Shown here in pieces: positions 1-60,352 of a stretch of DNA of 64,000 bases. A model generated the notes under the pieces. The model was given only the letters and a program-made list of their open reading frames with translations. It did not search any database and had not been told where the DNA came from. Each line of letters starts with the position of its first letter. The stretch's first letter is position 1. The DNA comes from Acidobacteriota bacterium (lineage in GTDB: Bacteria; Acidobacteriota; Aminicenantia; UBA2199). The translations under genes were made by a program, and so were the position numbers. The stretch is taken from the NCBI GenBank assembly GCA_022711715.1, contig JAKLEC010000001.1, forward strand, positions 33,500-97,499, read 5' to 3'.

Positions 1-294
1 TTCCAGGGGGTCGCCCGCCGCCCCGGCCCCGGCCTCGGCCAGGAGGAGCGCTCCCAGGCGGTTCTGTTCCTCCTTGGCATGGCGGTACGGGTCTTCGAGT
101 CCGGTCAGGGCGCGCAGGCGGCGATGGATGCGCTGGCCCATGAGCGGCGGCGGCTGGGACAGGTCCATGCCCGAGGTCCAGCGCAGCATGTCGCGCAGGA
201 TGCCTTCATGCAGCGCCGGATCGCGGCTGGTCAGGCGCGCCGCGTCCAGCGCCTGGCGGATGAGGCAGGGAATGCAATCCAGCTGCGTCCTCAT
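1..294 (-). CDS. DUF89/ARMT1-like family protein, N-terminal 98 aa (gene runs off window start)
   Basis: Minus-strand ATG at 294 gives MRTQLDCIPCLIRQALDAARL..., a CxPC N-terminal motif resembling DUF89 proteins. Not in ORF track because it is edge-truncated. Confidence 0.4.
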   Translation of the reverse strand, partial: MRTQLDCIPCLIRQALDAARLTSRDPALHEGILRDMLRWTSGMDLSQPPPLMGQRIHRRLRALTGLEDPYRHAKEEQNRLGALLLAEAGAGAAGDPLE

Positions 295-333: not shown

Positions 334-672
334 TCAGTGGTCGCAGACGTTTTGCCCCGATTTCAGGGTGCCGGCCAGCCAGGCGGCGACCAGGGTTTCC
401 GGGGACTCGGCCGGAGCGCCGATGATCACCTCGATACCGTGCTCGCAGAACAGCGCCTGGGCGCGCTGGCCCATGCCGCCGGCGATGATCAGCTTCGCTC
501 CGCGCTCAGCGAGCCAGCGGGGCAGCAGTCCGGGCTCGTGGGGCGGGGCATCGAGGTCCTCACGCTTCACGATCCGCTTCTCCTTGGTGTCGGTTTCGAC
601 CAGGGCGAAACTGGCGCAATGACCAAAATGCATGGACAACTTTCCGTCGGACAGGGGAATGGCGATCTTCAT
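334..672 (-). CDS. MTH1175/NifX-NifB-like dinitrogenase FeMo-cofactor-binding domain protein (copy 1)
   Basis: 112 aa MKIAIPLSDGKLSMHFGHC...LIIAGGMGQRAQALF, typical small NifX/NafY-fold protein. Translationally close to upstream mrp. Confidence 0.8.
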   Translation of the reverse strand: MKIAIPLSDGKLSMHFGHCASFALVETDTKEKRIVKREDLDAPPHEPGLLPRWLAERGAKLIIAGGMGQRAQALFCEHGIEVIIGAPAESPETLVAAWLAGTLKSGQNVCDH

Positions 673-706
673 GGTGTTTTCTCCTTGGGTACGGCTTTTT
701 CGGAAA

Positions 707-1630
707 TCACTTCGCTTCCGCCTCGAGGGCCTGCAGCGGGGCGATGATGCCGCGCATGACCGCCGCCGTGGGCGAGTCGGCGAAGGTGCGCACGTATGGC
801 CGTCCGTCGTCGCCGGAGGCGGCGATGGCCGGATCGATGGGGATCGACCCCAGGAAGGGCACGTTCATGCTCTCGGCAATGCCGCGGCCGCCCCCACGGC
901 TGAAGATGGGCGTCACCTCGCCGCACTTGGGACAGGCGAAGCCGCTCATGTTCTCCACCACGCCGAGCACGGGGATGCCGAGCCGGCGGCAGAAGGTGAT
1001 CGACTTGCGCACGTCGACGGCCGCCACCTTCTGCGGCGTGGTGACGATCACTGCTCCGGTGATGCCGGGGATGAGCTGGCAGACCGAGAGCGGCTCGTCA
1101 CCCGTTCCCGGCGGCGAGTCGATAACCAGCCAGTCCAGGTCGCCCCAGGCGACGTCCATGAGGAACTGCTTGATGGCTCCCATCTTCAGCGGGCCGCGCC
1201 AGATGACGGCCTCGTCGGGATGGGGCAGCAAGAAGCCCAGCGACATGACGGCGATGCCGCCGGCGTCGGCGGGCAGGAGCCCGTCGGGCCCGCTGTCCAG
1301 CGTCATGCCCTCCAGACCCAGCATGGTGGGGACGCTCGGGCCGTGGATGTCCACGTCGAGCAGGCCGACGCGGCGGCCGACGGCGTGCAGGGCGGCGGCG
1401 ATGTTCACCGCCACCGTGCTCTTGCCGACGCCGCCCTTGCCGGAAAGGACCACGATCTTGCGGCGGATGCGGCACAGGCGCGACTCGAGCCGGCGGCGCT
1501 CGGCGAACTCCTGGTCGTTCTCGTTGCTGCGGCGGCTGGCGGCCGAGCACTCCTTGTTGCCGCAGGCGTCGCAGGCGCTCGGCCCGGCCTCCCGGGCGGC
1601 GCCGGGGTCTTTCCCGTTCTTGTTTTCCAT
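707..1630 (-). CDS. apbC: Mrp/NBP35/ApbC family Fe-S cluster carrier ATPase
   Basis: [10 protein letters not shown] Walker A, CPKCG motif, VVENMS signature. Cys-rich N-terminal tail. Confidence 0.85.
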
Positions 1631-1639
1631 GGGTGTCTC

Positions 1640-2512
1640 CTAAAGCTGCAGATTATTCCATATGGCGCGGATGTCGTCCACGCAGGGCGCGTCGGTCTCG
1701 ACCACGGCCCGCTCGCGCAGCTGCGCCGCGGTCACGCCGGCGTCGTAGCGCACGCGGCCGGCGAGCCGCGCCCCGGCGGCGGCGGCCTTGGCCTCGATGC
1801 GCTCCGTCATCTCCGGGTTCAAATCCCATTTGTTCACGCACGCGGCCACCGGGACCTGGAAGTGGCGGGCCAGGGAGAGCACCCGCTCCAGGTCGTGCTC
1901 GCCGGAGACGGTCGGCTCGGTCACGGCCAGCACCAGCGAGGCGCCGCTGAGCGAGGCGATCACCGGGCAGCCGATCCCCGGCGGGCCGTCGACGATGATC
2001 CGTTCCCGCTTCTCCTCCTCGGCCAGGCGTCGCGCCTCGCGCCGCACCAGGGCCACGAGCTTGCCCGAGTTCTCTGCGGCCGCCTTCAGCCGAGCGTGGA
2101 CCATGGAGCCGCAGCGGGTGTCGGAGACCAGCCACTCGCCGCAGAGGCATTCGGGAAAGTCGATGGCCTGGGCGAGGCAGGAGCGGACGCAGACCCCGCA
2201 GCCTTCGCAGCCGATGGGGTCGACGCGAAAGACCGGGGTACCGTCGGGGCGGGCCGCCATGGCGATGGCGGCGAAGCGGCAGAGCTCGGCGCACAGGCCG
2301 CAGCCCGTGCAGTCAGCGGGTCGGATCAGCGCCTGGCGGCCGCTGACGAAATCGTGCCGCTCGCGCGGCCGCGGCGCCAGCACCAGGTGCAGGTCGGCGG
2401 CGTCGACGTCGCAGTCGGCGACCACGGCGTCGCCGGCCAGCACGGCGAACGAGGCGGCGAGGCTGGTCTTGCCCGTTCCGCCCTTGCCGCTGAGCACGAC
2501 CAGTTCCCTCAT
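1640..2512 (-). CDS. MinD/ParA-superfamily P-loop ATPase with inserted 2x[4Fe-4S] ferredoxin domain
   Basis: LSGKGGTGKTS deviant Walker A. Two CxxCxxCxxxC motifs (CTGCGLCAELC, CEGCGVCVRSC). Confidence 0.8.
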   Translation of the reverse strand: MRELVVLSGKGGTGKTSLAASFAVLAGDAVVADCDVDAADLHLVLAPRPRERHDFVSGRQALIRPADCTGCGLCAELCRFAAIAMAARPDGTPVFRVDPIGCEGCGVCVRSCLAQAIDFPECLCGEWLVSDTRCGSMVHARLKAAAENSGKLVALVRREARRLAEEEKRERIIVDGPPGIGCPVIASLSGASLVLAVTEPTVSGEHDLERVLSLARHFQVPVAACVNKWDLNPEMTERIEAKAAAAGARLAGRVRYDAGVTAAQLRERAVVETDAPCVDDIRAIWNNLQL

Positions 2513-2775
2513 TTATCCTTCCCGCAAGCCGGTTCGCCGCAGGGCTCACCGCGGCCGCAACAGGTGCGGCCGGTGCGCTGAAGCGAGCAGTCCGCCCCTC
2601 CCCGCGCCGGCGCCTCCTTTCCGCCTCCCTTCACGATGAAACCGGCACCGCCGCTGACGACGCGATGCACCCGTCCCCGGCACTGCGGGCAGCGGGTCAG
2701 GGGCGCGGCGCTGATGGGCTGCATCTTCTCGAACCGGGAACCGCATGCTTCGCACTCATATTCATAGGTCGGCAT
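2509..2775 (-). CDS. FmdB-family zinc-ribbon putative regulatory protein
   Basis: MPTYEYECEACGSRFE...CPQCRG, canonical FmdB CxxC-CxxC ribbon. 4-bp overlap with downstream ATPase. Confidence 0.8.
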   Translation of the reverse strand: MPTYEYECEACGSRFEKMQPISAAPLTRCPQCRGRVHRVVSGGAGFIVKGGGKEAPARGGADCSLQRTGRTCCGRGEPCGEPACGKDK

Positions 2776-2778
2776 GGC

Positions 2779-3618
2779 TCATCCTCCTTGGCCGCCGAGC
2801 AGCGTGTCGGCGAGCCCGGAAAAAAGGGCACGATACTCAGGCACGGCGTCGAAGACCAGCCGGCCGCGGGAATAGGCCTCGGCGATGCGCCGGTCGTCGG
2901 CGATCTCCATCATGATGGCGATGCCGGCCTCCCGGCAATAGCGGTGAACACGGTCGTCCCCGGCCCCGGCGCGGTTCAGGACCACGGCGAAGGGCTGGGC
3001 CAACTCGCGCAGGGTGTCCACCGCCAGCTGCAGGTCGTGCAGCCCGAAGGGGGTGGGCTCGGTGACCAGCAGGACGAAGTCGGCGCCGCGCACGGCGGTG
3101 ACCACCGGGCAGGACGTGCCGGGCGGGGCGTCAATCACGGCGGGCAGCGAGGGATCGAGGCGGCGTTTGACCTCGCGGATCAGCGGCGGCGCCAGCACCG
3201 AGCCCACGTCCAGTCTGCCCGTCACCAAGGCGATGTCTCCCGCCTGCCGCCTTTCCACCATGCCGATGCGCCGGGGAACCTCGCGGATCGCCTGCCGCGG
3301 GCACACCCTCGGGCAGCCGCCGCAGCCGTGGCACATTTCGGCGAAGACCAGCGCCTTGGTGCCGGTGGAGACGATGGCGTGGTAGGCGCAGAAGCGGCTG
3401 CACTCACCGCAGCCGTCGCACCGCGACTCGTCCACCTCGGGGACCGGGATGGTGGCGACCTCGGAGGCCGCCTCGGTCCCGGGCAGGAACAGGTGGGCGT
3501 TGGGTTCCTCGACGTCGCAGTCGAGGAGCTGCAGCGGACGGGCGTAGGCGCGGGCCAGGTTGACGGCCAGCGTCGTCTTGCCCGTGCCGCCCTTGCCCGA
3601 GGCGATGGCCAGGGTCAT
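2779..3618 (-). CDS. MinD/ParA-superfamily P-loop ATPase with 4Fe-4S ferredoxin insert (paralog)
   Basis: Start taken at internal MTLAIASGKGGTGKTT (ATG 3618). The upstream 144 codons of the track ORF overlap the DUF5320 gene and are not coding. CDGCGECSRFC and CHGCGGCPRVC motifs. Confidence 0.75.
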   Translation of the reverse strand: MTLAIASGKGGTGKTTLAVNLARAYARPLQLLDCDVEEPNAHLFLPGTEAASEVATIPVPEVDESRCDGCGECSRFCAYHAIVSTGTKALVFAEMCHGCGGCPRVCPRQAIREVPRRIGMVERRQAGDIALVTGRLDVGSVLAPPLIREVKRRLDPSLPAVIDAPPGTSCPVVTAVRGADFVLLVTEPTPFGLHDLQLAVDTLRELAQPFAVVLNRAGAGDDRVHRYCREAGIAIMMEIADDRRIAEAYSRGRLVFDAVPEYRALFSGLADTLLGGQGG

Positions 3619-3890
3619 GGCCGGTCTCTCGATCCGCAGGAGCCGGGAAGCCTGCCTTCGCCTTCCAGCCGCCGCAGGCGGGCGCGCAGCGAAGCGATGC
3701 CGTCTCGCAGCGCCTGCAGGCGAAGGCGCAGCGAATGCAACCCCGGGGCCGCTGTCTCCTCCCCGACCGGCCCGGCAAAGACGGCCTGGGGACCGCCGGC
3801 TCCATCGGGCAGGTTCATCAGACAGTAACCGTGTCCATGGCCACTCATGGGCCCCTGCCCGCGGGGCCCGGTTCCATCGAATCCCGGCAT
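3615..3890 (-). CDS. DUF5320 family protein (MPGFDGTGP...coiled-coil C-term)
   Basis: N-term MPGFDGTGPRGQGPMSGHGHGYC matches DUF5320 MPxxDxTGP motif. C-terminal LRLRLQALRDGIASLRARLRRLE coiled coil. ATGA overlap with next gene. Confidence 0.7.
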   Translation of the reverse strand: MPGFDGTGPRGQGPMSGHGHGYCLMNLPDGAGGPQAVFAGPVGEETAAPGLHSLRLRLQALRDGIASLRARLRRLEGEGRLPGSCGSRDRP

Positions 3891-3916
3891 GCGTCACCTC
3901 CTGTTCGCGAACGGCG

Positions 3917-5614
3917 CTAGCGCTCCCTGGGAAAAGGCCAGGCCGCGATGCCGCCCTCCATGACCTTGACGTTCTTCCAACCGTTGGCCTCCAGGACCAG
4001 CGCCGCCTCGTAGCCGCGCAGCGAGATCTTGCAGAAGCAGACGATCTCGGCATTCTTGTCCTGGGGCAGCTCGGCCAGCCGCTTGCGCAGGGCGCCGAGC
4101 GGGATCAACCGCTCGCCGATCCCCAGGCGCATGGCCTCGAACTCGTCGGGCCCGCGCACGTCGAGAAGAAACAGCGGTTCGCCGGCCTCGACCTTCCTCT
4201 TGACCTCCATGGCCGAAATCCCCTTGAGCCGGCCTTTCAGCTTGTTCTGCATCAGATGGGCGGTGGCGATGAAGTGGTCGATGGCCAGGGAAAAAGGCGG
4301 GGCGTATGGCAGGTCGGCGTTGACGACGTCCTCGACGCCCAGCTTGCCCAGCACGGCCATGGCCCATTCGGCGACCTGCCGCGACACGTCGCCCGGGCCC
4401 ACCACCTGGGCGCCCAGGATGCGGCCGTTGGCCCTGTCCACGACCAGCTTGCTGACCAGCAGCTTGCCGTTCATGAAGCCGGGCTTGTCCAAGCTGGCGT
4501 TGATCACCGTGTCCACGTCGCGGCCCGCTTCGCGGGCGCTGCGCTCGTTCAGCCCGGTGGTGCCGGCCTTGAAATCGAAGATCTTGCAGATGCCGGTCTG
4601 GATGGTGCCGGGGAAGGAAACGACATTGCCCAGCACGGCGTTCTCGCCGGCGACGCGGCCCTCCAGATTGGCCAGGTCACCGTAGGGGGCGTGGTTGCTG
4701 CGGCCGGTGATACGGTGGGGGATCTCGATGCAGTCGCCGGCGGCGTAAATGTCGGGGTCGGAGGTCTGCATGAACTCGTTGACCAGGATGCCCCCCTTCG
4801 GGCCCAGGGCCAGCCCGGCCTCGCGCGCCATCCGGCTGTTGGGCTTCACGCCCACCGCCAGCACGGCGAGTTCGCAGGGGAGCTCCGTGCCGTTGCTCAG
4901 CTTGACCCCGGTCAGCTTCCCGTCCTGGCCCAGGAAGGCGGCCAGGCCATTGCCGGTGATCACGTTTACCCCCTTGCTGCGCACGTGGGCCTCGACCAGC
5001 TCGGCCAGCTCCCAGTCCAGGAAGGTGAGCAGCTGCGGCAGCAGCTCGATGACCGTGATTTCGATGCCGGCCAGCTGCAGCGCCTCGCAGGTCTCGATGC
5101 CGATCAGACCGCCGCCGATCACCACGGCCTTCTTGATCGTCTTCTCGTCGCGCACCCGGCGCAGGAAATCGGCGTCTTCCATCCCCTGCAGGGTGGTGAT
5201 GCCCTTCAGGTCGCCGCCGGGAACGGGGGGGATGTTGGGCAGGGCGCCGGTGGCCAGGATCAGCCGGTCATAGGGGAGCGTTTCCTCCTGGCCGGAAGCC
5301 AGGTCGCGGACGCGCACCGCCTTGGCGGCGCGGTCGATGGCCAGCGCCTCGGTGTTCGTGCGCGCCCGGATGTTCTTGGCGTTCATGTAGTAGACGGGAT
5401 CGCGGACCACGCCGGTGGGGGTGCAGAGCAGCATGTTGCGGTCGTCGAAAAAGCCGCCGACGTAATAAGGATAGCCGCAGGAGGCCATGGAGAGGTCCTT
5501 CCCCTTCTGCACCAGGGTGATGTCGGCCCGCTCGTCGAGCCTCCTGGCCTTGGCCGCGGCCTTGGGGCCGGCGGCCGAGCCGCCGATGACGATGATCTTT
5601 TTGTTTTTGGACAT
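3917..5614 (-). CDS. CoA-disulfide reductase / NADH oxidase-type FAD-dependent pyridine nucleotide-disulfide oxidoreductase with C-terminal rhodanese domain (CoADR-RHD)
   Basis: KKIIVIGGSAAGPKAA FAD motif, VVIGGGLIGIE NAD motif, AAGDC. C-terminal FLLDVRGPDEFE...CKISLRG rhodanese active-site Cys. Confidence 0.85.
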   Translation of the reverse strand: MSKNKKIIVIGGSAAGPKAAAKARRLDERADITLVQKGKDLSMASCGYPYYVGGFFDDRNMLLCTPTGVVRDPVYYMNAKNIRARTNTEALAIDRAAKAVRVRDLASGQEETLPYDRLILATGALPNIPPVPGGDLKGITTLQGMEDADFLRRVRDEKTIKKAVVIGGGLIGIETCEALQLAGIEITVIELLPQLLTFLDWELAELVEAHVRSKGVNVITGNGLAAFLGQDGKLTGVKLSNGTELPCELAVLAVGVKPNSRMAREAGLALGPKGGILVNEFMQTSDPDIYAAGDCIEIPHRITGRSNHAPYGDLANLEGRVAGENAVLGNVVSFPGTIQTGICKIFDFKAGTTGLNERSAREAGRDVDTVINASLDKPGFMNGKLLVSKLVVDRANGRILGAQVVGPGDVSRQVAEWAMAVLGKLGVEDVVNADLPYAPPFSLAIDHFIATAHLMQNKLKGRLKGISAMEVKRKVEAGEPLFLLDVRGPDEFEAMRLGIGERLIPLGALRKRLAELPQDKNAEIVCFCKISLRGYEAALVLEANGWKNVKVMEGGIAAWPFPRER

Positions 5615-5623
5615 GGGTACTCC

Positions 5624-6193
5624 TTACCCTGAGTTTTTTTCCTGACGGCGGGACGGTCTCTTCCCTTGGGCATGCCGGGACGGAAGGCGGCGTATTCCCC
5701 GCCTGCGTGCGGTCGCCTCGTCGACCTCTTCCTGCCAGCCGCTGCGGCAGGCGGCGACGCGGTCGAAGCGGGCAATATAGGGCTTGATGTCAAGCAGCGG
5801 CGTGCCGTCCAGGATGTCGCCGCCTTCGATGTGCAGCACCGATCCCTCGCGGCCGAGAAGCCGGACCAGGCTCAGGCCGATGGCGTTGGGGCGGCGGGGG
5901 GAGCGGGTGGCGAACACCCCCCGTTCGGCGTCCTGCAGGAAAGGGCGGACCGACAGTGCGGCGGCTGCGGCGCGATGAAAATGGTATAGCAGGAAGATAT
6001 GGGAGAATCCCTCCAGGTCGCGCAGTCCGGCGGCGAATTCGCCGGCCACTTCAACCCGCCCCCGGCACGCCCGGGCGTAGACCGGTTGGATGGGCGTCTG
6101 TTCGGGATCGACATGCCCGCTGCGGATCACGCCGATGGCACGGAAGGCGATGGCCGCCTTGCCGGGCAAGGGCCGGGTTTTTGCGGGGTTCAC
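5624..6193 (-). CDS. tsaA: TsaA/YaeB-family SAM-dependent tRNA methyltransferase
   Basis: GFSHIFLLYHFH and LDIKPY motifs of UPF0066/TsaA. Confidence 0.75.
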   Translation of the reverse strand: MNPAKTRPLPGKAAIAFRAIGVIRSGHVDPEQTPIQPVYARACRGRVEVAGEFAAGLRDLEGFSHIFLLYHFHRAAAAALSVRPFLQDAERGVFATRSPRRPNAIGLSLVRLLGREGSVLHIEGGDILDGTPLLDIKPYIARFDRVAACRSGWQEEVDEATARRRGIRRLPSRHAQGKRPSRRQEKNSG

Positions 6194-6549
6194 CAGTGGC
6201 CCTGAACGTCTGCGCCAGAGGATTCCTTCAACTCACCCGCTTTGTACTTTGCCACGGCATCGGCGATGGTAGCGGCGTCACTGGCATAAATCTTGACCCC
6301 GGCGGCGGCGAGGACGCGGAAAGCCTTGGGGCCGCAATGCCCGCTGACAAGTGCTTTCGCACCGGAACGGACCACTGTTTCAGCGGCTTGGATGCCCGCG
6401 CCCTGGGCCGCGGCCAGGTTTTGCTGGTTGTCAATAATTTCGAAACTTTGGTTTTCCAAATCATAGATTAGGAACTTGGAAGCCCGGCCGAAACGGCTTT
6501 CCAGCGGTGCGCTCACGTTGTTACCCGATGTAGCAAATGCAATTTTCAT
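6190..6549 (-). CDS. MTH1175/NifX-NifB-like FeMo-cofactor-binding domain protein (copy 2)
   Basis: MKIAFATSGNNVSAPLESRFGRASKFLIYD...ALVSGHCGPKAF, NifX-like fold. Preceded by AAGGAGG RBS. Confidence 0.8.
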   Translation of the reverse strand: MKIAFATSGNNVSAPLESRFGRASKFLIYDLENQSFEIIDNQQNLAAAQGAGIQAAETVVRSGAKALVSGHCGPKAFRVLAAAGVKIYASDAATIADAVAKYKAGELKESSGADVQGHW

Positions 6550-6618
6550 AAAATATCCTCCTTGCTTGTCAGTCCATGGCAGCTTGCCGGCGCCGGCCGC
6601 GTGCGTGCTGGCCTCGCA

Positions 6619-7338
6619 CTATTTTTTTTTGATAGTGCTTAAAACCTTATCCTTATCGATTTTTTTGGTGCAGAAGAACCAGTCGTGGCAGGTGACGCCC
6701 GCCTCCTTGCCCTCCATGCGCTCCTTGGCCACGCCGCAGGAGCCGGCGGTGGGCACGATGACGTCGTCGCCCGGGCGCCAGTCGGCCGGGGTGGCCACGC
6801 CGAAGGAGTCCGCCGTCTGCAGCGCCTGCAGCGCGCGCAGCAGCTCATCGAAGTTGCGGCCCATGCTCAGCGGGTAGTAGATGATGGTGCGGATGACGCC
6901 CTTGGGGTCGATGAAGAAGACGGCGCGCACGGCCTTGGTCGAGCTCTCGCCCGGCTGCATCATGCCGTATTTGTGAGCCACTTCCATGGTGATGTCCTCG
7001 ATCAGCGGGAACTTCACCTCGACGTTCTTCATCCCCTTGTAGTCGATCTTCTCCTTGATGATTCGCAGCCAGGCGATGTGGCTATACAGGCCGTCGACCG
7101 ACAGGCCGACCAGCTGGCAGTTCAGTTCGGCGAACTGGTTCTCCAGGGTGGCGAAGGTCATGAACTCCGAGGTGCACACCGGGGTGAAGTCGGCCGGGTG
7201 GCTGAACAGGATGATCCACTTGCCGGCGTACTGCTCGGGAAAGTTGATCTCGCCCTGGGTGGTGACGGCCTTGAACGAAGGAGCCTTGTCGCCGATGCGC
7301 GGCATCACGCCGCTTTGTGTTTCTTTGTTTGTTTCCAT
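6619..7338 (-). CDS. 1-Cys peroxiredoxin (Prx6/AhpC-TSA family), copy A
   Basis: FTPVCTSE peroxidatic Cys motif. ~88% nt identical over ~700 bp to 26423-27133. Start could alternatively be Met12 (MPRIGD). Confidence 0.85.
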   Translation of the reverse strand: METNKETQSGVMPRIGDKAPSFKAVTTQGEINFPEQYAGKWIILFSHPADFTPVCTSEFMTFATLENQFAELNCQLVGLSVDGLYSHIAWLRIIKEKIDYKGMKNVEVKFPLIEDITMEVAHKYGMMQPGESSTKAVRAVFFIDPKGVIRTIIYYPLSMGRNFDELLRALQALQTADSFGVATPADWRPGDDVIVPTAGSCGVAKERMEGKEAGVTCHDWFFCTKKIDKDKVLSTIKKK

Positions 7339-7377
7339 TGTCTTCTCCTTTTATTTCTATTTAAACAAGAATGGCTG

Positions 7378-7821
7378 TTAATTATAAGACGCTTTGATCT
7401 CCGGCGCTTCCAGGAAAAGGGGCTTGGCCAGTTCCTCCATGTTGCTCTCTTTCCAGAAGGGCAGCTTGGCATGGTCATCCATGTATTTCTGCGGGATGGG
7501 ATGGGTGCCGATGATCACCGGCAGGCCGTACGCGGCCTCGATGAAGGCCTTGAAGCGACGGATGTTGGGGCAGGGCGGATAGCCTACCACCAGCCCGGTG
7601 GCCAGGTGAACGGCCGTGGCGCCGTTCTTCTTGAACTCTGCCGGCACGTATTCCACGTTACCGCCCGGACAGCCGCCGCAGGTCGAATAGCCGACGACCT
7701 CCACTTCCTCTTCTCTGGAGTAAATGGAAAAGGCACCGACCCTCTCGCGTATTGCCCGGAAACATTTGCCGCCTCCGCAGTCCTTGTAGCGGGCGCAGAT
7801 GATGATGCCAATCTTGGTCAT
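7378..7821 (-). CDS. CGGC domain-containing protein
   Basis: KDCGGGKC and YSTCGGCPGG motifs of PF08821. Confidence 0.75.
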   Translation of the reverse strand: MTKIGIIICARYKDCGGGKCFRAIRERVGAFSIYSREEEVEVVGYSTCGGCPGGNVEYVPAEFKKNGATAVHLATGLVVGYPPCPNIRRFKAFIEAAYGLPVIIGTHPIPQKYMDDHAKLPFWKESNMEELAKPLFLEAPEIKASYN

Positions 7822-7863
7822 AAAAAATCTCCTGGTTCCCGGATCCGGGCCCCACCGGGAACC

Positions 7864-8229
7864 CTACTTCGTTTCGCCTTCCGTGTCCAGTTCCTCGAGG
7901 CGCTTGCGGATGGCATCCAGCTCGCCCTGCATGGCGTCTGCCTGGGCCTTCAGCGATCTTTTCTCGCTTTCAGGATCCGGGAAGAAATCGGGCGCCGGAA
8001 CGCCGTAGCGCATCCACCCCGGCTGGCCCGTCGTGTAGAAGCGGTTGCGCCAGCCGCGGCCGCCGCCGCCGAAGCCGCGGGCCCAGGCGCCGCGCCCCCT
8101 GCCCAGGCCGAAGCCGCGGCCAAAAGCCGGGTTAGCATATCCGGGCATGGCGAAGCCTGCGCAAAATCCGGCCCCACGGCCGGTCATGGGCCCCAGTCCA
8201 TTGGGCCCCGTCCTGTCTCCTCTCGGCAT
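7864..8229 (-). CDS. DUF5320 family protein (Gly/Arg-rich middle, coiled-coil C-term)
   Basis: MPRGDRTGPNGLGPMTGRGAGFCAG N-term. C-term LDAIRKRLEELD. Confidence 0.75.
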   Translation of the reverse strand: MPRGDRTGPNGLGPMTGRGAGFCAGFAMPGYANPAFGRGFGLGRGRGAWARGFGGGGRGWRNRFYTTGQPGWMRYGVPAPDFFPDPESEKRSLKAQADAMQGELDAIRKRLEELDTEGETK

Positions 8230-8256
8230 GGTTACCTCCTTGTATTTCCTATTTTT

Positions 8257-8883
8257 CTATTCCCGGACCATGGCCGTGCCGCACTGGGGGCACTGTCGCC
8301 TCACGCAGGGAACGCCCCTCTCGTGCGCCAGCCGCTGGCCGCATTTCGGGCAGACACAGTTGCCGACCGCGCCCGCGGCTACCGGGCCGCCTATGCGGCC
8401 GCGCCCCTGTCCGGCGCCTTGCCGGCCCATGCCCCCCCCCAAGCCGCGGCCTTGCCCGCGGCCTCCGCCAAAACCTCCGCCTCCTTGTCTTCTTCCGTTC
8501 ATGAAGCGATCCTCCTCGAGGAGCGCGCGGCAGCCGAATCGCCGGCAGCCGGGCATGAAAAAGCGGCTCGCGGGAAGCTTTCCCGCCGTCCAGGCCTCGA
8601 TCACCTCGGCAAGATCGCCGGAAACAAACGGGATCACCCGGATACCCGATGATGCGATCATTGCCTGCAGGGGCCGGGAAATCGCCCCGCAAACCAGGAT
8701 CTCGACGCCCAGCTCGCGGAGGCGCAGCGCTTTCTGCATGGGCAAGGGCAGATCCAACCCCTCGCGCTGCCGGCGGATGACGCGGCCGGCTCCGGCTTCG
8801 ACCATGAGAACCTGGCGGGCTGAGTCGAATACCGGCGCGATGCGCTCTTCCCAGCACGAGAATGCCGTTTTTACGCTTGCCAT
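8257..8883 (-). CDS. MTH1175/NifX-like domain fused to Gly-rich linker and C-terminal CxxC-CxxC zinc ribbon (copy 3)
   Basis: Start chosen at MASVKTAF (ATG 8883) behind AAGGA SD and the sigma-54 promoter. NifX-like LGVEILVCGAISRP core. GGGFGGGRGQGRG linker. CPKCG...CPQCG ribbon. Confidence 0.65.
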   Translation of the reverse strand: MASVKTAFSCWEERIAPVFDSARQVLMVEAGAGRVIRRQREGLDLPLPMQKALRLRELGVEILVCGAISRPLQAMIASSGIRVIPFVSGDLAEVIEAWTAGKLPASRFFMPGCRRFGCRALLEEDRFMNGRRQGGGGFGGGRGQGRGLGGGMGRQGAGQGRGRIGGPVAAGAVGNCVCPKCGQRLAHERGVPCVRRQCPQCGTAMVRE

Positions 8884-8907
8884 ACGCATTCCTTCATGAA
8901 CGTCCAT

Positions 8908-8924
8908 GCAATGACGATGCCAAG
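8908..8924 (-). promoter_or_regulatory. Candidate sigma-54 (-24/-12) promoter TGGCAT-N5-TTGCA
   Basis: Minus-strand read CTTGGCATCGTCATTGCATGG. GG and GC spaced exactly as in the TGGCAC-N5-TTGCA consensus. 25 bp upstream of ATG 8883. rpoN and an EBP gene are in the window. Confidence 0.45.
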
Positions 8925-9042
8925 CTCCCGGCAACGGAGGTGGGATCGTTTAGATTGCCGATGGCAAATGACTTTTCGTGATGCTGCTTGTAACGCGACG
9001 TACAGGAATGAGTAGCGTTTTGGCTACCCTCCATGATAGCCG

Positions 9043-9057
9043 CATTGCGGCAATGCG
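9043..9057. promoter_or_regulatory. Perfect 15-bp palindrome GCATTGCGGCAATGC, candidate enhancer (UAS) for the sigma-54 activator
   Basis: Lies ~120 bp upstream of the -24 element, the classic EBP enhancer distance. Just 3' of the activator stop codon. Confidence 0.35.
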
Positions 9058-9059
9058 AC

Positions 9060-10433
9060 CTATTTGGCTGGTGAACGGCGACCGGGGAGAGACAGGCCCA
9101 GCTGACGGATGCGGCGGAAGAGGGTGGTCTTGTGGATGCCCAGTTCGCGGGCCGCCGCGGCGCGGCTCCCTCCGTGGCGCTCGATCGCAGCGCGGATAGC
9201 TTGGGCGTCGAGAACGTCGTGGGCCGCGCGCATGCCGGGACGGTCCGTCCCGGCATGCAGGGCGGTCAGCTCGGCGGGCAGGTGCTCGACGCCGATCTCG
9301 CCGACGGAGCAGAGGATGAAGGCGCGTTCGATGACGTTCTCCAGCTCGCGGATGTTCCCTGGCCAGTCGTGGGCCATCAGCAGCGCCAGCGTCCCGGCCG
9401 ACATTCCCTGGACGGCCTTGCCTTGCAGGCGGTTAAAGCGCTCGATGAACTGCCCGGCCAGCAGGGGAATGTCCTCCCGGCGCCGGCGCAGCGGCGGCAG
9501 CTCGAGGCGCACGACGTTAACCCGGTAATAGAGGTCCTCGCGGAAGTCACCCGATCGCATGCGTTCGGCCAGGTCACGGTTGGTAGCGGCGATGACGCGG
9601 GCATCGGACGTTTCGGAACGGGTCGCTCCCAGTGGATCGAAGGCGCGGTCCTGCAGGACACGCAGCAGCTTCACCTGCAGCGGCGTGCCGATCTCGGCGA
9701 TCTCGTCCAAAAAAATGGTGCCGCCGCGAGCCATGGCGAAGCGGCCAGGTTTGTCGCGGTCCGCACCGGTAAAAGCCCCAGCCTTGTAGCCGAAGAGCTC
9801 GGATTCGAGCAGTGTTTCAGGCAGCGCGCCGCAGTTGACGGCGACGAACGGGGCGCGGTTACGCGGGCTGAGGGCATGGATGGTGCGGGCCACCAGCTCC
9901 TTCCCCGTTCCCGTCTCGCCCAGGATCAGGACGGTGCTGGGGCTGGCGGCGACAGCGGGCAGAACCTCGAATATCCGCTGCATGAGGGGGCTGCGCGAGG
10001 CCAGGTCGCCGACGCGGTATTTTCCCTGCAGCTCCTGGCGCAGCGCCTCGACCTCGGAGAGGTCGCGAAAGGTCTCGGCACCGCCGATCACGCGCCCCGC
10101 CGCGTCGCGCAGCAGGGCGGTCGAGACGCTGATGGCGATGCGATTGCCGCCTGCATCCACGATGTACCCGGACTTGCCGATGATCGGACGACCCGATTGC
10201 AGGGTCCGCTTCAGGGCGCATTCGGCCCCGCACATGCTGGAACGGAACACATCGGAGCATCTCCGGCCGATCGCCTCCCGGCGCGGCACACCGGTGATCC
10301 GCTCAGCGGCGCGATTGAACGACGTGACCCGCCATTCCGCGTCGACCGTGAACACGCCGTCGGAAATGCTTTCCAGAATGGAGTCCGTGCAGGCCAGGGG
10401 ACTCCGACTTCGTTTGGCTTGTCCGCTGCTCAC
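9060..10433 (-). CDS. Sigma-54-dependent Fis-family transcriptional activator (PAS sensor - AAA+ sigma54 interaction - HTH)
   Basis: PAS N-term. GETGTGKE Walker A. GAFTGA loop. ESELFGY. C-terminal Fis HTH (TTLFRRIRQLGL). No receiver domain. Confidence 0.9.
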   Translation of the reverse strand: MSSGQAKRSRSPLACTDSILESISDGVFTVDAEWRVTSFNRAAERITGVPRREAIGRRCSDVFRSSMCGAECALKRTLQSGRPIIGKSGYIVDAGGNRIAISVSTALLRDAAGRVIGGAETFRDLSEVEALRQELQGKYRVGDLASRSPLMQRIFEVLPAVAASPSTVLILGETGTGKELVARTIHALSPRNRAPFVAVNCGALPETLLESELFGYKAGAFTGADRDKPGRFAMARGGTIFLDEIAEIGTPLQVKLLRVLQDRAFDPLGATRSETSDARVIAATNRDLAERMRSGDFREDLYYRVNVVRLELPPLRRRREDIPLLAGQFIERFNRLQGKAVQGMSAGTLALLMAHDWPGNIRELENVIERAFILCSVGEIGVEHLPAELTALHAGTDRPGMRAAHDVLDAQAIRAAIERHGGSRAAAARELGIHKTTLFRRIRQLGLSLPGRRSPAK

Positions 10434-10528
10434 GAGCGCTTTTTTGGCGAGTACGCGGGCGGTGCGTCGTCCCGGCGCCCCGTCAGCGGGCCCGAGACGC
10501 CGGGCCCCATCCTGTCTCCTCTCGGCAT
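10430..10528 (-). pseudogene. Truncated DUF5320 N-terminus (32 codons) abutting the sigma-54 activator start
   Basis: MPRGDRMGPGVSGPLTGRR then stop. 10505-10545 (incl. RBS) near-identical to 8203-8245, the start of the intact DUF5320 gene. Stop overlaps activator ATG (ATGA). Confidence 0.5.
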
Positions 10529-10584
10529 GTTCACCTCCTGTTCATCGATCCCCCGCCGCTGCGGCGGCCGGCAGAGGAATTGAG

Positions 10585-10820
10585 CCCAGGGAAGGCAGAG
10601 GGAGGAGAGAGGGAAGAATGAGGGAAGTGAGAGTGGGAAAAGCCATGTCATGAATTATTCCCACTTTGTCTTCCCCTTGTCTTTCCCTCTGCATTTCCCT
10701 CTCTCTTCCCTGGAGCCTGGAACTTCACATTTCAGCCTGCCATACGCCGTCAGCAGAACGCCTTGCGCCAAGGTCTTTCGGCTTCCCGTACGCCGTATGC
10801 CGTCCACCGTACGCCATCTT
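10585..10820. repeat. GA-rich/CT-rich long inverted-repeat module plus CCGTACGCCGTATGCCG module
   Basis: GGGAAGTGAGAGTGGGAA ... TTCCCACTTTGTCTTCCCC hairpin. Related copies at 36130-36240, 36510-36640, 38885-38935, 40375-40440. Tail shares CGTACGCCGTATGCCG with 23265-23290 and 40500-40850. Confidence 0.7.
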
Positions 10821-11191
10821 CAATGGCAGCCGTGATGGTGCCGGCAGGCGTCGCCGGGCTGGAACAGGGGGAGACGACCGGCCTGGAACTCCTGCAGCGC
10901 CTGGCCCACCGTGGTCGGGCCCTCGGCCAGGTAAACGGAGATGCCGATCTCGTTCAGCTTCTGCACGGCGCGCATGCCCATCCCCTGGCAGGCTACCGCC
11001 TGGACGCCCCGCTCGCTCAGGCCGGAGGTCGGCTGGCATTGGCCGTGGGCGTGCTCGTGCTGGCCGTTGTCCACGGCCTCGAAAGCTCCGCTGTCGGCAT
11101 CCACCACGGCGAAGATCGGCGCGCTGCCGAAATGGCCGTACAGCTCGGAATCCAGCCCCTGGTCGGTCTCGATCGGGAAAGCAATCTTCAT
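10820..11191 (-). CDS. MTH1175/NifX-NifB-like FeMo-cofactor-binding domain protein (copy 4)
   Basis: MKIAFPIETDQGLDSELYGHFGSAPIFAVVD...VACQGMGMRAVQKL, His/Cys-rich C-term. Confidence 0.8.
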   Translation of the reverse strand: MKIAFPIETDQGLDSELYGHFGSAPIFAVVDADSGAFEAVDNGQHEHAHGQCQPTSGLSERGVQAVACQGMGMRAVQKLNEIGISVYLAEGPTTVGQALQEFQAGRLPLFQPGDACRHHHGCH

Positions 11192-11640
11192 TGTGTTTCT
11201 CCTTGCGTTGATTGGCTACGTTCATGGACGCGCCGGCCCGCGCCGGCTCGGCCGGTGCCGCGGCGGCAGGCAGGGCAGCGGGCGGGCGGCGGCGCGCCCG
11301 CATCCTGTCGCCAGCGATGGCGGCAGGAACCGCAGACGAATTCCCCCTCCCCGGCCTGCACGGCGCTGCCGGCGATGCGCAGCACCTTGCCGTTTACCAG
11401 GCAATCCGCGGTCTTGCGCCGGGCGGCGGCCACCACATTGCCGAAGGTCTGGCGCGAGACGCCCATGCGCGCGGCGGCCTGCTCGTGGTACAGTCCCTCC
11501 AAGTCGGCCAGGCGCAGCGCCTCGAGCTCGTCCAGTGCCAGCGCCACTTCAGGAAGATCCCTGGCGGGGATCCCGGCCGGCTTGAAGAGCGTGGCGTCGG
11601 GCACGAATCCCACCCGCCGGCACTTGCAGGGCCTAGGCAT
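11188..11640 (-). CDS. DUF134/UPF0251 family putative DNA-binding protein
   Basis: MPRPCKCRRV N-terminal signature of DUF134. Sigma-70 region-4-like HTH. C-terminal CGSC...CPAC. First gene of the minus-strand cluster. Confidence 0.75.
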   Translation of the reverse strand: MPRPCKCRRVGFVPDATLFKPAGIPARDLPEVALALDELEALRLADLEGLYHEQAAARMGVSRQTFGNVVAAARRKTADCLVNGKVLRIAGSAVQAGEGEFVCGSCRHRWRQDAGAPPPARCPACRRGTGRAGAGRRVHERSQSTQGETQ

Positions 11641-26422: not shown

Positions 26423-27133
26423 TCACTTCTTCTTGATCGTACTGAGCACCTTCTCCTTGTCGATCTTCTTGGTGCAGAAGAACCAGTCGTGGCAGGTGAC
26501 GCCGGCTTCCTTGCCGTCCATCCTATCCTTGGCCACGCCGCAGGAGCCGGCGGTGGGCACGATGACGTCGTCGCCCGGGCGCCAGTCGGCCGGGGTGGCC
26601 ACGCCGAAGGCGTCGGCGGTCTGCAGCGCCTGCAGCACGCGCAGCAGCTCGTCAAAGTTGCGGCCCATGCTCAGCGGGTAGTAGATGATGGTGCGGATGA
26701 TCCCCTTGGGATCGATGAAGAAGACGGCGCGCACGGCCTTGGTCGAGCTCTCGCCCGGCTGCATCATGCCGTACGCCTTGGCCACGTTCATGGTGATGTC
26801 CTCGATCAGCGGGAACTTCACCTCGACGTTCTTCATCCCCTTGTACTCGATCTTGTCCTTGATGGTGCGCAGCCAGGCGATGTGGCTGTACAGGCCGTCG
26901 ACCGAAAGGCCGACCAGCTGGCAGTTCAGCTCGGTGAACTTGGCCTCCATGGAGGCGAAGGTCATGAACTCCGAGGTGCACACCGGGGTGAAGTCGGCCG
27001 GGTGGCTGAACAGGATGACCCATTTCCCCGCGTACTGCTCGGGAAAGTTGATCTCGCCCTGAGTGGTGACGGCCTTGAACGACGGGGCCTTGTCGCCGAT
27101 GCGGGGCATGCTGACGGTTGCGTTCTGTTCCAT
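26423..27133 (-). CDS. 1-Cys peroxiredoxin (Prx6/AhpC-TSA family), copy B
   Basis: Start MEQNATVSMPRIGD (ATG 27133). FTPVCTSE motif. Paralog of 6619-7338. 5 bp downstream of the Fur-family gene. Confidence 0.85.
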   Translation of the reverse strand: MEQNATVSMPRIGDKAPSFKAVTTQGEINFPEQYAGKWVILFSHPADFTPVCTSEFMTFASMEAKFTELNCQLVGLSVDGLYSHIAWLRTIKDKIEYKGMKNVEVKFPLIEDITMNVAKAYGMMQPGESSTKAVRAVFFIDPKGIIRTIIYYPLSMGRNFDELLRVLQALQTADAFGVATPADWRPGDDVIVPTAGSCGVAKDRMDGKEAGVTCHDWFFCTKKIDKEKVLSTIKKK

Positions 27134-58800: not shown

Positions 58801-58990
58801 GCCAGCTCGCTGCCGGTCAGAACGAACAGGGCTTCAAGGTTCGGCGTTCGAAGTTCGACGTTCGACGTAACGAAGGCCAATTCGCTCGGATGCTTTTTAC
58901 GATCTCCAAGCAGGTTCTGATCTCTGTTTCAGACAATGGGTGTCTAGTAAAGAAAAGCGATTGCTTTTGCATTTTTGCAATCCGTCCCCA
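58801..58990. repeat. Partial family-A element (arm without central hairpin)
   Basis: AAGGTTCGGCGTTCGAAGTTCGACGTTCGACGTAACGAAGGCCAATTCGCTCGGATGC. Confidence 0.7.
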
Positions 58991-59059: not shown

Positions 59060-60352
59060 ATGAATACGACGGGTGACCCTGCCAGCAAGATATCCACCAG
59101 GGAAAGGCTCTGGAACCAAAGCTTTTTCATCCTGTGGCAGGGCCAGCTGGTCTCGGCCTTCGGCGACGTCATCTATGCCATTGCCCTGGGCTTCTGGATC
59201 CTGGCCCAGACAGGCTCAACGGCGCTCATGGGCGCCTTGCTGGCGGCCGCTTCTTTGCCACGGGTGCTGGTTTCTCCCTTCGCCGGCGTGCTGATCGACC
59301 GCAGCGACCGCAAGCGCCTCCTGATCCTGACGGACACGATCCGGGGCATTGCCGTGGCCCTGGTCGGAGTGGCCGCGCTGCTGGGCTTCGCGCGAACGTG
59401 GATGCTGTTTGCGGCCGCCATCGTGATCGGCCTGGGGGGCGCGTTCTTCAATCCGGCCGTGGCTAGCGCACTTCCCGACATGGTCCGCCGCGACAGGCTC
59501 GTGCAGGCCAATTCGCTCTTTCACATGATCTATACCCTGTCGGGCCTGGCGGGCAACTCCGTTGGGGGCTTCCTGTTCAAGATTCTTGGGGCTCCGGTCA
59601 TGTTCTTCATCAACGGGCTCTCCTATCTTTTTTCGGCCCTGGTCATCCCGTTCATAAGGATCCCTAGGGTCGAGGCGCGGGTGGAGCGTTCCCCTTTCCT
59701 TTCCGACCTGAAGGAAGGCTTCGCCTTTATCTGGCGCTTCATCGGCCTGCGCCACCTGCTGGCGTTCGCCGCCATCATGAATTTCTTCGCTTCCATGGGC
59801 GTCATGCTGATCCTGCCGCTCTTCGAGCACCAGCGCCACCTGGGCCCCGTCCTCTACGGCCTGGTCATGGCCTGCTTCACCGGCGGTCTCCTGGCCGGCC
59901 TGCTCTTTTCGTCCATCGTGCGCATCCGGCCCGCCAGCCGCTTCAGGCTCTTCGCCGCTTGCGGCTTGATCTCCTCGCTCAGCATGATCCTCTTTCCCCT
60001 TTCCCTGCACTTCCCGTTGATGGCGCTGCTGGCCTTCGCGGGCGGGGCGGCTTCAGCGCTCCTCAACATGTTCATGACCAGCGTCATCCAGCTCACCGTG
60101 ACCCAAGAGATGCGCGGCAAGGTGTTCGGCATCCTGGGCGGCATCAGCACGGGCCTCATGCCCCTGGCCCTGGTCACGGGCGGCGTGCTGGCTGAGTTCA
60201 TCCCTATCCGCATCCTGATCTCGGCCAGCTTCGCGTTCACGATCCTGCTGTACTTGCCCCTTTTCGCAAGCGCCGCCTTCCGCCGCACCATCACCTTCGA
60301 TCCTGACACCCAGGCCGCGGCAGACCTCATCGCCTTCGGTGCGAAAACCTGA
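59060..60352 (+). CDS. MFS transporter
   Basis: 430 aa, 12 TM. DRSDRKR motif A-like loop between TM2-3. Confidence 0.8.
   Translation: MNTTGDPASKISTRERLWNQSFFILWQGQLVSAFGDVIYAIALGFWILAQTGSTALMGALLAAASLPRVLVSPFAGVLIDRSDRKRLLILTDTIRGIAVALVGVAALLGFARTWMLFAAAIVIGLGGAFFNPAVASALPDMVRRDRLVQANSLFHMIYTLSGLAGNSVGGFLFKILGAPVMFFINGLSYLFSALVIPFIRIPRVEARVERSPFLSDLKEGFAFIWRFIGLRHLLAFAAIMNFFASMGVMLILPLFEHQRHLGPVLYGLVMACFTGGLLAGLLFSSIVRIRPASRFRLFAACGLISSLSMILFPLSLHFPLMALLAFAGGAASALLNMFMTSVIQLTVTQEMRGKVFGILGGISTGLMPLALVTGGVLAEFIPIRILISASFAFTILLYLPLFASAAFRRTITFDPDTQAAADLIAFGAKT

Follow-up and report, generated by a model that had tools for sequence, protein, structure and literature searches.

The 177-bp intergenic region between the gene of an enhancer-binding protein and the operon that follows it very probably controls the latter as an orp-type (orange-protein-complex) operon of a Candidatus Aminicenantes genome, and works like the OrpR/orp redox switch known from anaerobes such as Desulfovibrio vulgaris Hildenborough. 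The region was analysed within a stretch of DNA of 64 kb, hereafter the window, and it is assigned as a new member of this characterised system because of the domains of the activator, its Cys motif and the orp-like genes downstream. The reading builds on the motifs themselves, on their uniqueness in the window, on the way in which their positions are kept in about 40 loci, and on the domain and Cys signature. An earlier note on this DNA treated the arrangement as an open prediction, whereas it corresponds to the known OrpR/orp system (PMC8359166, PMC3897727). No new question is opened, because the mechanism is known from Desulfovibrio; what an uncultured Aminicenantes genome gains is a named and experimentally studied logic, in which a sigma-54 promoter is combined with an Fe-S/PAS redox-sensing activator.

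The activator (10433..9060, minus strand) is an OrpR-like enhancer-binding protein endowed with a PAS domain, a sigma-54 AAA+ domain with the GAFTGA motif and an HTH_8 domain, the Pfam matches being PAS_4 at residues 20-129, Sigma54_activat at 146-310 (1.1e-66), AAA_lid_14, and HTH_8 at 409-444. It possesses the Cys motif C59-x-D61-x6-C68-x3-C72, and among 80 homologues with 53-77% identity the C-x8-C-x3-C pattern occurs in 80/80 and a D or E at C+2 in 79/80. By analogy with OrpR, this motif suggests that the PAS domain may carry a redox-sensitive [4Fe-4S] cluster. The gene of a DUF134 protein, for which the HTH matches are weak, lies upstream of the activator at 11640..11188.

Downstream of the activator, thirteen ORFs run in one direction on the minus strand (334..8883) with gaps of at most 69 nt. 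In order, they encode NifX with a Zn-ribbon, DUF5320, CGGC, a 1-Cys peroxiredoxin, a NifX-like protein, TrmO_N, an FAD disulfide oxidoreductase with rhodanese, DUF5320, a MinD/Fer4 ATPase, Zn_ribbon_8, a second MinD/Fer4 ATPase, Mrp/NBP35 and a NifX-like protein. About 40 nt past the last NifX-like gene lies a 14th ORF, ARMT1-like/DUF89 (1..294, minus strand), which is cut by the window edge. Terminator-like sites were not found between these ORFs on the minus strand, where the terminator count equals that of chance, and the genes would form a single transcript that probably extends past the window edge. The operon therefore exceeds the distal nine genes that had been proposed, as it comprises the 13 closely spaced ORFs plus the 14th running off the window. 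The proposal that the local PAS-sigma54 activator drives it is likely correct; the gene of this activator, with its Sigma54_activat domain and GAFTGA loop, lies immediately upstream. Orp-type neighbours (NifX-like, MinD/Fer4 and Mrp) also adjoin the activator in relatives, and Pfam revealed no nitrogenase structural genes in the cluster.

The minus strand at 8924..8904 reads CTTGGCATCGTCATTGCATGG and contains the sigma-54 promoter core TGGCAT-CGTCA-TTGCA (TGGCATCGTCATTGCA, 8922..8907), with GG at 8921-8920 and GC at 8909-8908, so that the two doublets stand at the required spacing of 12 nt (G to G). The core matches TGGCAY-N5-TTGCW exactly and is one base off TGGCAC, as the earlier note had recognised when it placed a promoter with one mismatch at 8908-8924, a span that ends at the GC. 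Its distance of 25 bp from the NifX-zinc-ribbon gene was likewise given correctly: 25 nt separate the C of the -12 GC from the ATG at 8883, and the orientation is correct for the downstream gene. Over both strands of the 64 kb, TGGCATCGTCATTGCA is the sole exact TGGCAY-N5-TTGCW (0.13 expected) and the sole match scoring at least 10/11; the exact pattern turned up somewhere in 64 kb in 12 of 100 shuffles. No second sigma-54 promoter within the operon was found by the window scan, and no RpoN box was found in the six-frame translation of the 64-kb window.

When the interval from +95 to +210 after the activator stop was scored, a sigma-54 promoter (at least 10/11) was present at the same offset in 36/77 related loci, against an expectation of 0.004 for each interval. 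In close relatives, the columns of TGGCA and TTGC do not vary (alignments A1 and A3); six contigs that share the identical NifX protein match the window at 99.9-100% identity and offer nothing to compare. By its position and conservation, the predicted promoter is clearly well beyond chance, and on this comparative evidence it is real and conserved. With the standard geometry of sigma-54 promoters, transcription is predicted to start at 8894..8897 on the minus strand, 12 nt past the C of the -12 GC, and a start near 8896 would leave a leader of only about 13 nt. Close relatives have the same number of nucleotides between the -12 element and the start codon, and a ribosome-binding site, GAAGGAA (8889..8895, minus strand), is located 5-6 nt ahead of the ATG at 8883, in a GAAGGAG/GAAGGAA column that is kept in the same alignments (A1 and A3). 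A likely mis-called start codon was also corrected by the analysis.

Upstream of the promoter, the predicted family unit for the activator is a 16-bp dyad, GTNGC-N6-GCNAC, present twice per locus with the two copies 31-34 bp apart; the clade consensus is GT[A/T/C]GC(A)-N4-(T)GC[A/T/G]AC. In the window, the candidate distal site A is GTCGCATTGCCGCAAT (9059..9044, minus strand; 20-mer 9061..9042), which abuts the TAG stop of the activator gene and is centred near -155 from the predicted start, and the candidate proximal site B is GTAGCCAAAACGCTAC (9027..9012, minus strand; 20-mer 9029..9010), centred near -123. Measured from the T of TGG, their centres lie 129 nt (A) and 97 nt (B) upstream, at enhancer distance, and 32 bp from each other, which is the family spacing. 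The overlap of the distal dyad with the stop codon of the regulator may recur in this family, often with the TAG within GTAGC.

Site B is the only perfect GTNGC-N6-GCNAC in the 64 kb. A dyad matrix trained solely on other loci, with the window left out, ranked site B first (20.7 bits) and site A second (10.6 bits) in the whole window. In 21/22 loci the two top matrix matches are 31-34 bp apart, and four more relatives outside the training set have both sites, 32 bp apart, as the top two matches of each whole locus. Counted from the T of TGG, the perfect dyad begins at -105 in the window and between -101 and -105 in ten related loci. The 644 kb of loci contain 48 perfect GTNGC-N6-GCNAC matches, of which 22 lie in the 150 bp upstream of the conserved sigma-54 promoters. 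Conversely, one locus (L092) with a homologous activator and no NifX operon downstream is devoid of both dyads and of the promoter. Judged on the core alone, site A has one mismatch, and such matches number 35 in the window; site A draws its support from its spacing, its matrix rank and the comparison with locus L091, whose activator is 98% identical and whose equivalent of site A, GTTGCATTGCCGCAAC, is a perfect dyad of 18 bits. A weak matrix match at 58964..58983 has no sigma-54 promoter downstream, and no site of at least 6 bits was found upstream of the DUF134 gene or of the activator, where it could have indicated autoregulation.

The earlier note had proposed a single enhancer element, a perfect palindrome about 120 bp upstream by the activator stop. 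This 15-bp palindrome, GCATTGCGGCAATGC, is indeed present at 9042..9056, 120 bp upstream of TGG and 3 nt past the activator TAG stop (9062-9060). Its arms can be lengthened to 8 bp, which gives 17 bp in all (CGCATTGC-C-GCAATGCG, 9041..9057), and a 21-bp version (9039..9059) has a single mismatch. An enhancer does begin at the activator stop, as the note held, but the conserved unit there is the 16-bp dyad of site A, which the palindrome overlaps with its register shifted by 2.5 bp, and the second, stronger dyad at 9027..9012 was missed. A repeat search with a 6-nt seed over 8850..9150 returned no inverted repeat, which reflects a limit of the settings and not absence. The family motif gives no account of why the overlapping palindrome is perfect.

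It might nonetheless be argued that the perfect palindrome (9057..9041) is itself the recognition site of the activator and its sole enhancer, since it is unique in the window, abuts the activator gene at a plausible enhancer distance, and forms part of a 21-bp near-palindrome that contains two mirror-image family dyads offset by 5 bp. This explanation is quite unlikely. The exact sequence does not recur within the window, as a recurrence check confirmed, but palindromes this good are about as frequent as chance would have it: the window holds 12 perfect inverted repeats whose arms measure 8 or more and whose spacers measure 0-3, while Markov simulations give 8.1 +/- 2.9. Taken alone, the palindrome does not rise above this rate, and it gains meaning only from where it lies and from the conserved motif that it overlaps. 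Moreover, its register lies 2.5 bp off the conserved one, leaving 29.5 bp to site B instead of 32 bp, and in L091 two substitutions cut it to 6/8 pairs while making the family dyad perfect. It is absent from all other relatives, L087, L089, L090 and L001 included, and a sole palindrome leaves out site B, the best-supported element.

Another explanation, very unlikely, is that the two inverted repeats act in RNA, forming stem-loops at the 3' end of the activator mRNA by which it is terminated or stabilised. Both hairpins would lie just past the stop codon, and a 76-nt stretch does fold into two hairpins with a dG of -25.5 kcal/mol (z = -3.3). However, both hairpins lack a U-tract after them, and scanning for terminators gave nothing here on the minus strand, so that the palindrome was rejected as an intrinsic terminator. 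Across loci, the GT.GC...GC.AC bases are kept, whereas the six inner nt show no complementarity and no conservation; this pattern of specific conserved bases points to a protein site and not to a covarying stem. Nor would an RNA role account for the constant spacing of 32-33 bp or for the constant distance from the -24 element. The Rfam search of 8600..9300, which also argues against stem-loops, gave no match, and a riboswitch or leader RNA was rejected.

The dyads could also be bound by a different regulator, such as the DUF134 protein or a NikR-like protein, with the sigma-54 activator binding elsewhere. The HTH matches of the DUF134 protein and the NikR-like genes that precede the activator in some relatives (L090, L093 and L095) speak for this explanation, which is still extremely unlikely: the dyads go with the 3' end of the activator gene, be its upstream neighbour DUF134, NikR or a peptidase, their form (a GCA-N3/4-TGC core in 16-17 bp) resembles that of the experimentally defined OrpR site (PMC8359166), and the matrix yielded no alternative activator site candidate in the window. 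Finally, short consensus motifs can arise randomly, as the promoter pattern did in the shuffles, but chance matches with no regulatory function are scarcely credible and appear effectively refuted by the comparative data, since promoter and dyads are positionally conserved across dozens of diverged loci.

The spacer between the dyads and the promoter holds a third inverted repeat, TTGCC-ATC-GGCAA (TTGCCATCGGCAA, 8955..8967), centred near -65, whose A..GG(G)C columns are nearly invariant in 9 close relatives. It occupies the place of AT-rich tracts found in the spacers of more distant loci, some of which contain IHF-like cores such as AATCAATAATTAG. In the window, the IHF consensus WATCARNNNNTTR was not found in 8923..9011 with at most one mismatch.

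If the two-dyad control region operates as OrpR/orp does, sigma-54 RNA polymerase would sit on TGGCAT-N5-TTGCA (8922..8907) as a closed complex, while activator dimers would occupy the two dyads on the same helix face, 32 bp or three helical turns apart. The active AAA+ oligomer would form at the dyads, loop over about 100 bp to the promoter and open it with ATP, and transcription would proceed from near 8896 through 13 or more genes. As in OrpR, the PAS cysteines may hold the [4Fe-4S] cluster, making the activator competent at low redox potential and switching it off when oxidised.

The comparison with D. vulgaris and its sigma-54 orp1/orp2 promoters is based on the papers of Fievet of 2014 and 2021 (PMC3897727, PMC8359166). 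According to these, the site of OrpR is an imperfect palindrome of 17 bp, bound at -131 and at -88; OrpR drives sigma-54 promoters, and its regulon is confined to the adjacent orp operons. The same confinement appears to apply here, as no other good site occurs in the window. The two activators (OrpR is DVU2106) have in common the PAS/AAA+/HTH architecture and C-x-[D/E]-x6-C-x3-C, represented in the PAS domain of OrpR by C52, D/E54, C61 and C65 (PMC8359166), and their likeness is by domains, motif and neighbours. In both systems the activator gene adjoins NifX-like, MinD/ferredoxin ATPase and Mrp/NBP35 genes, and at the Pfam level the NifX-like, MinD/Fer4 and Mrp proteins found here correspond to Orp8, Orp3/4 and Orp9 (PMC6345978). 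Both also combine a -24/-12 promoter with a dyad of 16-17 bp that has a GCA...TGC core and lies roughly 90-155 bp upstream of the start. The orp system of D. vulgaris has also been rebuilt in E. coli.

The half-site is GT[A/T/C]GCA with N4 here and GGCGCA with N3 in D. vulgaris, whose site GGGCGYRTTTTGCGCCC gave 0 matches even when 3 mismatches were allowed; as judged from sequence, the relation to the D. vulgaris OrpR site is one of form (a 16-17 bp dyad with a GCA/TGC core) and not of identity. Two dyads, 32 bp apart, serve one promoter here, in contrast to the one site per promoter described for D. vulgaris (PMC3897727, PMC8359166). There, IHF is required at orp and has a functional site between enhancer and promoter (PMC3897727); here, an IHF consensus with at most one mismatch was not found in that interval. 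The missing D. vulgaris site and IHF consensus weigh against the OrpR/orp reading, as do the lack of an RpoN box in the window and the short predicted leader. Activator and operon are co-directional here, with the distal dyad at the activator stop, whereas two divergent operons flank orpR in D. vulgaris. The AAA+ motif reads GAFTGA here and GAFTDA in DVU2106 (PMC4641369), and Mrp and the NifX-like domain are separate genes here and fused in MrpORP (PMC6345978). The operon is also much larger than orp, with the addition of a peroxiredoxin, an FAD disulfide reductase with rhodanese, TrmO_N, CGGC and DUF5320, and the host is Ca. Aminicenantes instead of a deltaproteobacterium.

Homologues of the activator with 53-77% identity occur in MAGs labelled as more than ten phyla. 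Tentatively, and with some doubt, the OrpR module might be viewed as a redox-switch cassette that is self-contained and horizontally mobile, with an enhancer geometry that is fixed and undescribed for D. vulgaris, in which the dyads are 32-33 bp apart, the distal one over the regulator stop and the proximal one starting about 100 bp upstream of -24. In the lineage of the window, site A would in addition have become the 21-bp near-perfect palindrome with its two mirror-image dyads, which could permit alternative binding registers. For OrpR-type regulators, the analysis also provides an enhancer motif and a rule for its spacing that span phyla and could be used to annotate orp operons.

The NtrC enhancer of E. 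coli glnAp2 is composed of two dyad sites centred near -140 and -108. The likeness consists in a pair of dyads about three helical turns (32 bp) apart, placed 100-150 bp upstream of a sigma-54 promoter, and the two-dyad arrangement presumably serves the cooperative assembly of the AAA+ oligomer, as for NtrC. However, NtrC is a phosphorylated response regulator with another recognition sequence, whereas the activator here is a one-component PAS protein without nitrogen-assimilation genes. The enhancer of NifA at nif promoters is TGT-N10-ACA, and here, too, a sigma-54 promoter with an upstream dyad precedes genes for the 'dinitrogenase FeMo-cofactor' (NifX/NifB-like) domain. NifA, with its GAF sensor and TGT-N10-ACA, nevertheless differs from the system described here, which has a PAS sensor and GTNGC-N6-GCNAC and is not associated with nitrogenase structural genes.

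The promoter core TGGCATCGTCATTGCA (8922..8907, minus strand) conforms to the sigma-54 type, and is followed by a ribosome-binding site, GAAGGAA (8895..8889, minus strand), and by the ATG start (8883, minus strand) of a NifX-like/zinc-ribbon gene. TGGCAY-N5-TTGCW has one exact match on both strands of the 64-kb window against 0.13 expected, and the same site is the sole match when at least 10 of the 11 positions are required with GG and GC fixed. By scanning one genome per species, 80 loci were collected that encode homologues (53-77% identical) of the PAS/sigma-54 activator (10433..9060), 77 of them with sufficient sequence downstream of this gene. In 36 of the 77, a sigma-54 promoter that agrees at 10 or more of the 11 positions occurs 95-210 bp past the activator stop, in most of them at 125-145 bp (137 bp in the window), against a background expectation of 0.004 per such interval, derived from the same loci. 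The promoter is therefore real, as the earlier note had supposed, and its position is conserved. The spacings in that note were also correct, with 25 nt separating the -12 C from the ATG and 120 bp between promoter and palindrome, as were its coordinates except for a slight error in the promoter range.

The deposited product of the first operon gene (NCBI protein HOW45212.1) is 216 aa long, implying that translation begins within 8881..8907 (minus strand) at the ATG 8907-8905. Because this codon shares bases with the -12 element and precedes the predicted transcription start, and because the start at 8883 gives a 208-aa protein with a ribosome-binding site and aligns with the ATG/TTG starts of relatives, the deposited protein probably has 8 codons too many.

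Alignment of the related loci on the -24 element reveals two dyads of the form GTNGC(A)-N4-(T)GCNAC. Perfect copies of the 16-bp family register, GTNGC-N6-GCNAC, number 48 in 644 kb of loci; 22 of these fall within 150 bp 5' of the promoters, 10 of them beginning at -101 to -105. The proximal dyad of the window, site B, GTAGCCAAAACGCTAC (9027..9012, minus strand), is its sole perfect copy in 64 kb and begins at -105, and was overlooked when a single enhancer was first proposed. A 20-column matrix, built from 19 sites in the other loci only with the window excluded, ranks site B first in the whole window (20.7 bits) and the distal dyad, site A, AGGTCGCATTGCCGCAATGC (9061..9042, minus strand), second (10.6 bits), followed by a match of 7.5 bits. 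In 21 of 22 loci the two best matches are separated by 31-34 bp, most often 33 bp (11 loci) or 32 bp (7 loci), the window having 32 bp; the dyad centres lie at about -127 and -95 relative to the T of TGG. In most loci site A overlaps the activator stop codon, and in several the stop is the TAG within GTAGC.

Closer relatives were found by exact-protein look-ups. In L091 (98% identity), L087 (84%), L089 (82%) and L090 (80%), the matrix places its top two sites of the whole locus 32 bp apart, and both dyads are visible in the alignment of L093, L094 and L095 (78-79%). L092 serves as a natural negative control, since its homologous activator is followed by an unrelated gene, with neither dyads nor promoter. 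Among the more distant loci, L045, L051, L055, L062 and L068, mostly labelled Planctomycetota, carry a dyad of 15 bp and not 16 bp (e.g., ATTGCA-TTA-TGCAAT, with N3 spacing as in Desulfovibrio vulgaris instead of N4), so that the family seems to include two spacing classes. Elsewhere in the window, the intergenic TTGCA-TTTT-TGCAA (58964..58983; 6.3 bits), about 80 bp upstream of an ORF starting at 59060, resembles the dyad core; it is followed by no properly spaced sigma-54 promoter, and a sigma-70-like TTGATT-17-TAAGCT is present there.

The enhancer unit had earlier been taken to be a perfect 15-bp palindrome (9056..9042), contained in GTCGCATTGCCGCAATGCGGC, directly 3' of the activator TAG (9062-9060, minus strand). 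With arms of 8 bp the palindrome reaches 17 bp, and if one mismatch is allowed it reaches 21 bp. Although its sequence occurs only once in the window, 12 perfect inverted repeats there have arms of at least 8 and spacers of 0-3, where first-order Markov simulations give 8.1 +/- 2.9; perfect symmetry per se is therefore unremarkable. Centred at 9049, the palindrome is displaced by 2.5 bp from the family register of site A (centre 9051/9052). The L091 counterpart, GTTGCATTGCCGCAAC, differs by two substitutions that leave 6 of the palindrome's 8 pairs yet perfect the family dyad (GTTGC...GCAAC), which then scores 18.0 bits instead of 10.6, and the palindrome occurs in no other relative. The family dyad is therefore the conserved unit, and presumably also the recognised one. 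The additional symmetry is restricted to the window's lineage and may be viewed as a pair of mirror-image dyads displaced by 5 bp. The core idea of the earlier note was right, and its detail of the enhancer was wrong. Another perfect palindrome, of 19 bp (CCGGGACGGTCCGTCCCGG, 9235..9253), within the activator coding region near the C-terminal linker, is probably due to chance.

The dyad stretch also folds into two RNA hairpins (dG -25.5, z = -3.3), but action as RNA, whether as a terminator or a stabiliser, is unlikely because the hairpins have no U-tract and what is conserved is specific bases, with a non-complementary interior, rather than the pairing itself; an Rfam search gave no match. 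Between the two-dyad enhancer and the promoter there is no IHF consensus. More distant loci have AT-rich tracts at that place, some with IHF-like cores, where the window and its close relatives carry a third inverted repeat, TTGCC-ATC-GGCAA (8967..8955), which precedes the predicted start by about 65 nt. This repeat does not fit the IHF consensus; its A..GG(G)C columns are nearly invariant in the window and 8 close relatives, while the surroundings have diverged.

Exact-protein matches assign the window to a Candidatus Aminicenantes MAG (GCA_016294905.1; HOW45211.1). From 11640 down to the window edge (position 1), every ORF lies on the minus strand. Those downstream of the activator encode, in order, NifX+Zn-ribbon, DUF5320, CGGC, 1-Cys peroxiredoxin, NifX-like, TrmO_N, Pyr_redox_2+rhodanese, DUF5320, MinD/Fer4 ATPase, Zn_ribbon_8, MinD/Fer4 ATPase, Mrp/NBP35 and NifX-like proteins. 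Because no gap exceeds 69 nt, terminator-like sites are all intragenic (none intergenic, and not commoner than in shuffles) and an ARMT1-like (DUF89) ORF (1..294, minus strand), cut by the window edge, follows about 40 nt past the last gene, the unit comprises 13 ORFs, not the 9 distal genes first proposed, and probably extends past the window; its ORFs would share a single transcript. The operon peroxiredoxin gene (6619..7338) is about 92% identical in DNA to another 1-Cys peroxiredoxin gene at 26427..27109, the identity being limited to the coding region, with unrelated flanks. It is missing at that position in L091, L087 and L090, where NifX comes directly after CGGC, yet the L095 operon includes one, so that orp operons seem to recruit this gene variably.

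The activator contains PAS_4, Sigma54_activat (1.1e-66), AAA_lid_14 and HTH_8 domains (Pfam). It is preceded on the minus strand by DUF134, a NifX-like gene and a 73-aa ORF (10430..10651) that overlaps its GTG start by 4 nt, has no match in Pfam and is annotated as a gene in some assemblies only. Just 5' of this ORF, a weak sigma-70-like promoter, AAGACA-18-AATAAT (10654..10683, minus strand), may drive the activator. The vicinity holds no OrpR-type site and so gives no hint of an autoregulatory overlap like that reported for D. vulgaris.

OrpR (DVU2106) of D. vulgaris Hildenborough is a PAS/AAA+/HTH activator that, with IHF, activates the sigma-54 promoters of two adjacent orp operons, its sole targets, from a 17-bp imperfect palindrome, GGGCGYRTTTTGCGCCC, at -131 and -88; it senses redox potential through a [4Fe-4S] cluster bound by PAS cysteines C52, C61 and C65, position 54 being a conserved D or E (PMC8359166, PMC3897727, PMC4641369). 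C59, D61, C68 and C72 of the window's activator have this same spacing, the cysteine spacing being kept in 80/80 homologues retrieved; the likeness to DVU2106 is one of domains and cysteine motif. The window's dyads are alike in form to the OrpR site (16-17 bp, GCA/TGC core), although the D. vulgaris consensus is not found in the window; its N3 spacing is shared by some loci labelled Planctomycetota. The OrpR papers compared here mention Deltaproteobacteria only, and the homologues (L001-L080, all with the cysteine motif) are from MAGs of many phylum-level labels, including Chrysiogenales, Omnitrophota, Thermodesulfovibrionales, Holophagales, Zixibacteria, Lentisphaerae, Verrucomicrobia, Spirochaetia, Planctomycetota, Myxococcota and Syntrophomonadaceae, which suggests that the module spread widely by horizontal transfer.

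The window's gene set is an orp (orange protein complex) cluster. Its Mrp/NBP35 (707..1630) and NifX-like 'Di-Nase' (334..672) genes are adjacent and separate, while the two domains are fused in D. vulgaris MrpORP (Orp9) (PMC6345978). The control region would most likely operate like those of OrpR/orp: the activator is predicted to bind the tandem dyads, oligomerise and loop to the promoter, with transcription starting near 8896 and under redox control. The system belongs to the already known OrpR/orp kind. The enhancer of NtrC at glnAp2 is a tandem dyad, and the two dyads of the window have a similar tandem layout.
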